A stretch of 64,000 nucleotides of DNA, from NCBI GenBank assembly GCA_050575255.1, contig JBNZDD010013701.1, positions 6,364,084 to 6,428,083 of the forward strand, written 5' to 3'. Origin of the DNA: Harriotta raleighana (taxonomy: Eukaryota). Below are positions 33,861-34,850 of this stretch, in pieces (positions within the stretch are counted from its first letter, which is position 1; the number at the start of each line of letters is the position of its first letter). The notes beneath the pieces are model-generated. The model did not search any database and had not been told where the DNA came from. It saw only the letters and a list, made by a program, of their open reading frames with translations. The position numbers and the translations under genes were made by a program.

Positions 33861-34850
33861 ATGGAGCGGCTCATCAGCAAACCGAATGAAGCCTTTGTGA
33901 CATTAGCAGAAAATGACCTATATGGAAAAGGTTCATTGGTACTCGCCTGCTCACTGAGAAAATACAGAACTACAAGGCAGCTGGTGATTCTCATCACTCC
34001 ACAAGTTTCCAGATCTATGAGGGCTGTGCTAGGAAGAATCTTTGATGAAATTCTATTAGTGGATGTACTGAAAAGTCAAGATTCAAGTAAGTTAATCCTA
34101 AAAAAAAGACCAGAACTCAGTCTCGTGTTGGCAAAATTGCACTGTTGGGATCTTACCCGTTATTCTAAATGTGTATTCATGGCTGCCGACACAATGGTGC
34201 TAATGAACATTGATGACCTTTTTGAAAGGGAGGAATTGTCTGCAGTACCAGATGACATTTGCACTGACTGTTTCAATACAGGGGTGTTTGTTTTTAATCC
34301 TTCCAGAGATACACATAAGGCACTTTTACAGCTTGCCATAAAGGGGAGCTTTGATGATGGGGATCAAGGCTTGTTGAATAGCTTCTTTAGCAATTGGGCA
34401 AAAACAGACATTTCTAAGCACTTGCCCTTCACTTACAACCTAAATTGCACTTCTGTCCATTTTCCAGCTATGAAACAGCAGGAGATGGCTATCAAAGTAA
34501 TTCACTTTCTTGACAAGACCAAACCATGGAACTATTCTTATGACCCCAGTACAAAACTTATGAAAGATCATGATTTATCTGTTGCTCATCCTGAATATAT
34601 ATACATGTGGTGGGATAACTTCACAGCATCAGTCTTGCCAATGCTTAAAGAACATGGCAATGAAGAAGCAACCAGTTCCATAAAAGAGGAAAAAATTACA
34701 GAGGCTTTAACACGGCTCTCCATCATTCCACGTACACTTAATGTCTCCTCAGAGGAACGTCGCCAGAGGTGGGAACAGGGTCAAGTTGATTTCATGGGAG
34801 CAGATTCTTTCCAGAATATCCAGAAGAAACTGGATGCTTACTTGAATTAA
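33861..34850 (+). CDS. GYG1: intronless glycogenin-1-like ORF (retrocopy) with substituted catalytic residues, nested antisense in SLC6A20 intron 10
   Basis: 329-aa uninterrupted [49 protein letters not shown]...KPW, C-terminal [14 protein letters not shown]; Kozak aggATGG. The symbol denotes the parent family; this is unlikely to be the canonical intron-containing ortholog. Confidence 0.9.

Follow-up and report, generated by a model that had tools for sequence, protein, structure and literature searches.

An old intronless GYG1 copy in chimaeras is predicted to encode a non-priming glycogenin with a conserved glycogen-synthase-binding tail

Introduction

Can a glycogenin that has lost its acceptor tyrosine be kept as a gene, and what would such a protein do? 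It is debated whether glycogenin serves to prime glycogen, to act as partner to glycogen synthase, or to do both. According to the available text of PMC9188544, Tyr195 is required for its self-glucosylation, the minimal synthase-binding region consists of its last ~34 residues within a 4:4 complex, and a helix-turn-helix (residues 300-332) makes the contact with the synthase. Glycogen can be made without glycogenin, yet non-glucosylating glycogenin has been linked to cardiomyopathy (PMC7046021 and PMC13671788, available sections).

The question is raised by a reading frame in the genome of Harriotta raleighana. It lies within a window, the whole stretch of DNA analysed here, of 64,000 nucleotides (contig JBNZDD010013701.1, positions 6,364,084 to 6,428,083), to which all positions below refer unless a contig is named. 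A preliminary description of this sequence had proposed a non-catalytic glycogenin that still docks on glycogen synthase or pairs with GYG1. Shark GYG1 has been treated before, and the available part of that study (PMC5630876) names no such paralog.

Results

An open reading frame in the last intron of SLC6A20

We found a 329-codon reading frame at 33861-34850 (+ strand) that encodes 329 residues with zero stops or frameshifts, as had been described. Its ATG stands in a context with A at -3 and G at +4, and the protein begins with a new N-terminal extension (10 residues). The product matches the GT8 family in Pfam (E=1.8e-14; catalytic-type glycogenin domain at residues 9-262, 33885-34646, +) and its top match in the PDB is human glycogenin-1 (E=6e-123). 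The host gene has SLC6A20/XTRP3 as its best PDB match. The location in an SLC6A20 intron given previously is correct and can be narrowed to the last intron (32702-37304, - strand; flanking exons 37305-37470 and 32567-32701), in which the frame is oriented antisense. Contigs from run X1 are identical to the window, with 0 differing letters over 33882-34130 and 34132-34542. This agreement counts against an assembly error and adds little independent support, since X1 is possibly the source sample of the assembly.

The region upstream of the frame (33650-33860, +) is single-copy and conserved in another lineage, organism B. It is a candidate promoter or 5' UTR and contains a sequence, ending at 33702, that may serve as a splice acceptor; no ATG occurs between this acceptor and the start of the frame. 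Relative to organism B, the region carries 16 substitutions over 211 nt, which is rarer than at synonymous sites (p=0.003). Its first part, 33650-33709, surrounds branch-point and acceptor-like sequence, differs by 1 substitution in 60 nt and is likely a regulatory element. Scanning 33001-33860 for TATA matches returned none. On the same strand, 9 kb upstream of the copy, are exons (21440-24640, +) that, by their motifs, we take to belong to SNRPD1 (Sm D1); transcripts of this gene may read through as far as the candidate acceptor at 33702. Downstream, two AATAAA candidates lie at 35325-35392 (+), 475-540 nt past the stop codon. The organism B contig ceases to align at 34888, 38 nt past the stop codon, and continues in unlike sequence, which would fit inserted or replaced sequence 3' of the frame in one of the lineages.

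Retroposition of GYG1

The same genome possesses an intron-containing GYG1 (contig C13729) and a GYG2 (C13694), both separate from the copy (C13701). We mapped six exons of the parent GYG1 with AG/GT borders, leaving its short first exon unmapped. The copy covers all six mapped exons without introns at an unlinked site and does not contain the alternative exon of the long GYG1 isoform, a pattern that a retrocopy made from the short mRNA would show. The reading frame is an old retrocopy of GYG1. It shares 215 of 320 residues with the GYG1 of its own genome, and the two genes are separated by a dN of 0.23 and a dS of about 1.6 (dN/dS 0.14); this dS is near saturation, indicating that the retroposition event is old, and at such a distance neither a poly(A) remnant nor a target-site duplication would be expected. 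The GC content at third codon positions is 0.40 in the copy against 0.61 in the parent.

In a tree of 29 proteins, the window copy and a protein of Callorhinchus milii form a clade (support 100/100) that is sister to chimaera GYG1 (support 92/85; the tree contained no GYG2 rows), with a stem branch of 0.36 compared to 0.11 for the parent GYG1. An origin predating the split of chimaeras and sharks is also compatible with the data (AU test, p=0.163). No shark or ray ortholog was found among the best 120 of 1738 protein matches, among the best 120 of 1460 matches to query residues 66-215, or among 118 short matches and the best 150 of 4116 representatives. We also considered that the copy might be the ortholog of GYG2 and rejected this, as GYG2 has its own distinct locus on C13694 and the copy groups with chimaera GYG1.

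Evidence for purifying selection

The top database match of the encoded protein is the C. milii protein just mentioned (84%). In its RefSeq form (XP_042187848.1) it is 330 residues long, intact, starts at the same methionine and is identical at 273 of 321 positions (85%); we infer its locus and intronless state. The UniRef model of this protein has an N-terminus unlike that of the RefSeq form and bears the label 'glycogenin glucosyltransferase' despite the missing Tyr195.

In organism B, the locus was recovered on one contig in each of the runs X5 and X9, from two studies, and aligned over 33650-34888. We saw 40 of its 113 substitutions, reaching 34115, and assumed them to be complete to that point, with codons 1-85 in view and codons 86-329, in which stops are conceivable, outside it. 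Over codons 1-85, 16 synonymous and 8 nonsynonymous changes separate organism B from the window (dS 0.31, dN 0.043, dN/dS 0.14, p=2e-5, or 3e-4 with transition-weighted sites). The 8 residue changes of organism B are not the same as the 13 of C. milii in these codons, which indicates a separate lineage. Six indels occur in the 211 nt upstream of the frame. Within the frame there are just a deletion of one nucleotide at 34348 and an insertion of one after 34360; together they restore the frame and leave about 4 codons shifted.

We simulated neutral evolution of the frame with 1000 runs per rate, leaving indels out. At 0.1, 0.2, 0.3 and 0.4 substitutions per site, an open frame was left in 47, 4, 0 and 0 runs, respectively. 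Identity fell to about 55% at 0.3, and at none of the rates did the C-terminal tail remain identical in any run. The preliminary description regarded stops, frameshifts and a dN/dS near 1 as the marks of a decaying processed pseudogene. Stops and frameshifts were found neither in the C. milii protein nor in codons 1-85 of organism B, and dN/dS over these codons is well below 1. The open orthologous frame and a dN/dS below 1, seen for organism B over codons 1-85, are the properties of a functional retrogene. At the level of sequence, it is well supported that the copy is a gene under purifying selection, and a decaying pseudogene appears unlikely.

Acceptor loss and altered invariant residues

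To define near-invariant positions, we used 119 GYG1 sequences, leaving out the tandem-duplicated P0003, and retained 144 positions that are at least 97% invariant. The window copy departs from the consensus at 28 of these, compared to a maximum of 4 in any of the 119 GYG1 proteins. At 24 of the positions both copies are altered; a further 4 affect the window copy alone and 9 the C. milii copy alone. The changes found in both include substitutions at T11, T83, P126-P129 (including W128) and G161, the loss of Y195-S196, and Y197H; D102A and G215D are among those restricted to the window, and R77T and D163N among those restricted to C. milii. The functional roles of T11, R77, D160, D163 and G215 are assumed here. 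PDB titles list rabbit glycogenin mutants of Asp159 and Asp162.

All substitutions named in the preliminary description could be located, on the + strand, and some of them are to be read differently than proposed. T11E (33909-33911; Ala in C. milii) lies in the nucleotide-binding loop, which was said to have changed from TTN to AEN. The loop of cartilaginous fishes reads ATN or VTN, so Thr11 alone is altered. G81S, T83V and T85A follow at 34119-34133, where C. milii has T83M. D102A (34182-34184) removes the first Asp of the DxD motif and had been emphasised. The window does read AAD, but C. milii keeps DAD, so this is a late change of the window lineage and not a defining one. The segment PDPGWP is altered in both orthologs and reads PDDICT in the window (34248-34265), including W128C at a dimer contact. 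The SFDDGD motif (34347-34364) has G161D in the window and G161N with D163N in C. milii; in organism B the compensated -1/+1 shift apparently falls across S158-G162 and, as read from the indel table, would remove D160 provided that no further substitutions modify this stretch. G215D, which turns HFLG into HFLD (34512-34514), is found only in the window lineage.

The shared changes are concentrated in the acceptor arm (34440-34484, +), which is remodelled by the loss of Y195-S196 between 34457 and 34458 and by Y197H. Neither protein ortholog has a tyrosine between human positions 188 and 221, and organism B has no insertion at the deletion site. The window copy therefore lacks two features of an active glycogenin, the acceptor tyrosine 195 and the DxD motif. 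Catalytic residues K86, D104, D125, N133, D160, Q164, H212 and K218 are kept in both orthologs.

The substitutions had been said to cluster at functional sites. This is not borne out for the active site: among 22 positions that we take to be active-site, acceptor and dimer positions, 9 are changed, versus 28 of 105 other near-invariant positions, and this enrichment is not significant (p=0.20). The changes common to both orthologs are nevertheless grouped along the chain, with 8 in a single 16-residue segment (p=0.008).

Within the GT8 domain, the two copies are identical at 213 of 254 positions and the corresponding parent GYG1 proteins at 242 of 258. Near-invariant sites are no better conserved than variable ones between the copies (20 of 125 and 22 of 130 differ, respectively; p=0.87), whereas the parent pair differs at 0 of 127 and 15 of 132. 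The equal rate of change at invariant and variable sites indicates that enzyme-specific constraint is gone, and the domain is under a general, probably fold-level, constraint. The protein is predicted by AlphaFold to retain the glycogenin fold (Foldseek E=6.5e-30). The low-confidence loops of the model (126-138, 164-167 and 180-208) were considered as a sign of damage and rejected, as they are the same in the parent control.

A conserved C-terminal tail

The last part of the protein evolves differently. The 34-residue glycogen-synthase-binding tail (34746-34847, +) is identical to that of the C. milii ortholog at 34 of 34 positions and to that of the parent at 31 of 34. The window copy retains every one of the 17 near-invariant tail positions and none is changed in either copy, which bears out the earlier statement that the tail is retained; by sequence, the copy appears to carry the C-terminal motif of ~34 residues found in active glycogenins. 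Between the copies, 0 of 34 tail positions differ versus 41 of 254 in the GT8 domain (p=0.007), and no such disparity is observed for the parent GYG1 pair (3 of 34 versus 16 of 258, p=0.47). Catalytic and substrate residues lost while fold and binding surface appear to stay under selection is the pattern expected of a pseudoenzyme.

Other glycogenins and glycogen synthases

Across 149 diverse glycogenin representatives, Y195 is kept in 146 of the 148 that cover it and D102 in 145 of 149. Among the exceptions, GYG2 of Sorex araneus (P0394, XP_054979611.1, flagged as low quality) has GPD in place of DxD, K86R, H212R and other catalytic changes together with a recognisable tail and Y195; this may be either a glycogenin that lost its activity by convergence or a gene in decay. 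A glycogenin-2-like protein of Limulus polyphemus (P0413, XP_013774608.1) has SPD in place of DxD, Y15C and R77Q, and keeps the tail motif and Y195.

Most vertebrates have two glycogen synthases. We identified three distinct intron-containing synthase genes in the genome studied here (C13312:131159-139514, C13623:1417992-1431105 and C13571:1617205-1636723; L019-L024), presumably one GYS2-like and two GYS1-like as labelled by eye. One synthase exon matches twice with equal score, 1.27 kb apart (C13571:1628579-1628695 and 1629849-1629965), which could reflect a local duplication or an assembly artefact.

Discussion

Our results suggest that chimaeras carry an old GYG1 retrocopy that is maintained by selection, has lost the acceptor tyrosine and has kept the synthase-binding tail exceptionally well. 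The proposed non-catalytic glycogenin stands in these respects, with the qualification that the DxD motif is not its defining lesion. Human T83M and D102H glycogenin-1 are expressed yet unable to autoglucosylate (available sections of PMC13671788 and PMC7046021). The window copy lacks Y195 and D102 and the C. milii copy lacks Y195 and has T83M, so both proteins are presumed to be non-priming. From this known biochemistry we infer that the retrogene proteins do not self-glucosylate and that their tail docks on the synthase. The additional suggestion of a heterodimer with GYG1 is doubtful. Y197 of one subunit is in contact with W128 and D160 in the other (PMC12267440, available text), and the change of both W128 and Y197 makes such pairing less likely.

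A mechanism can be proposed by analogy with human proteins. The retrogene protein would dock by its tail on glycogen synthase and, judged by human GYG2 and the Y195F form of GYG1, would compete with GYG1 for docking on the synthase tetramer, which has four such sites. An occupied synthase would be left without a primer, and the start of new glycogen particles would be dampened. In the available text of PMC12267440, complexes of the synthase with GYG1(Y195F) and with GYG2 have activities that are 10- and 84-fold lower, respectively. We give about an even chance to the retrogene encoding such a competitive, non-priming occupant of the synthase that dampens glycogen initiation. Several observations count against it: both orthologs keep several catalytic residues, C. 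milii keeps its DxD motif, and the same genome already encodes a GYG2 with intact catalytic motifs, which makes the need for another brake less than obvious. Two full-length protein orthologs underlie the comparison.

As the main alternative, the selected protein might keep glycogen synthase stable, soluble or in place and take no part in priming or inhibition, the dead GT8 domain being kept as a scaffold. The evidence from the tail and from GT8 constraint is the same for this reading as for a brake, and the three synthase paralogs could take different partners. Soluble human GYS1 is obtained only together with GYG1 or the GYG1 tail, and a complex of GYS1 with just the tail is about as active as the full-length complex (PMC9287172, available text); the latter also weighs against the brake, as a tail without a primer need not inhibit. 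Full-length unglucosylated glycogenin, on the other hand, lowered synthase activity (PMC12267440, available text) and failed to recruit PTG (PMC9287172, available text), and a bare tail has no need of a GT8 domain under purifying selection. We consider a pure stabiliser unlikely, if by no means negligible.

It is improbable that the GT8 domain first acquired a new acceptor and a new role, as a glycosyltransferase acting in trans or as a binder of sugar nucleotides, and is still active at least in some chimaeras. The long stem branch followed by slower change, the clustering of shared changes in the acceptor arm and the retention of D102, D104, H212, K86 and K218 in C. milii speak for this scenario. 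However, the orthologs show no extra conservation at glycogenin-invariant sites, and independent changes have affected D102 and G215 in the window, T83 (T83M), R77 and D163 in C. milii and apparently D160 in organism B.

Actin binds the C-terminus of glycogenin. The tail might then be kept for a partner other than the synthase, making the protein a cytoskeletal or granule adaptor, and tail conservation by itself names no partner. We find this quite improbable, since the invariant stretch is the whole synthase-binding helix-turn-helix of residues 300-332 (PMC9188544, available text) with its near-invariant positions intact. Finally, slow decay of a processed pseudogene in a genome that itself evolves slowly, with a frame left open by chance, would agree with an intronless, intronic copy whose GC3 has dropped from 0.61 to 0.40, with catalytic lesions that vary among lineages and with the existence of decayed primate GYG1 copies (P0381), but is very improbable given a dN/dS of 0.14 both to organism B and, near saturation, to the parent, a frame open in two species when at most 4 of 1000 neutral runs survived (from 0.2 substitutions per site upward), the identical tail and the compensated indel pair.

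Returning to a non-priming synthase occupant as the favoured interpretation, the retrogene can be placed among known glycogenins. It resembles GYG1 (GT8, PF01501) in overall identity, predicted fold and tail, and differs from it in being intronless, in lacking Y195-S196 and in the 28 of 144 altered near-invariant positions. The mechanism proposed here is that reported for human GYG2, whose tail binds the synthase, which shows minimal autoglycosylation and which suppresses glycogen formation (PMC12267440, available text); GYG2, however, keeps its acceptor Tyr228 and its introns, whereas the retrogene is a GYG1 derivative in which the acceptor is gone altogether. The copies are also similar to non-glucosylating human GYG1 variants: the window copy is hit at D102, the C. 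milii copy carries T83M and both lack Y195. The human T83M and D102H are rare recessive alleles of a working gene in glycogen storage disease XV and Y195F was engineered, whereas in the retrogene such lesions have become fixed, in a conserved gene apart from the working one. Colobine monkeys have processed GYG1 pseudogenes (P0381 cluster) that likely also arose by retroposition, but these bear deletions scattered over the protein, unlike the frame described here, which is open in two species and evolves at a dN/dS of about 0.14.

The preliminary description knew of no such regulator in this lineage. A synthase-binding glycogenin that does not prime was described in humans in 2025 (GYG2; PMC12267440, available text), and we found no description of an acceptor-less retrogene version in a literature search that covered few subscription journals and no supplements. 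The retrogene glycogenin is a new version of a regulatory idea already known from GYG2, and this precedent, together with the narrow lineage, limits the reach of the finding. Public databases name the acceptor-less protein as an active 'glycogenin glucosyltransferase'.

More speculatively, and with rather less than an even chance, chimaeras may have gained by early retroposition a dead glycogenin of dedicated function. It would be a dominant-negative of natural origin in which lesions of the human disease type are fixed, would set the number of glycogen particles started in some tissue and would perhaps be paired with the third synthase paralog; the shrew and horseshoe crab cases would then hint at a recurrent and so far unrecognised class of pseudoenzymes. 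For the debate on what glycogenin does, the retrogene would constitute a natural experiment that separates its two roles, with priming lost and the docking tail frozen, and its protein would be a ready reagent for the non-catalytic role of glycogenin.
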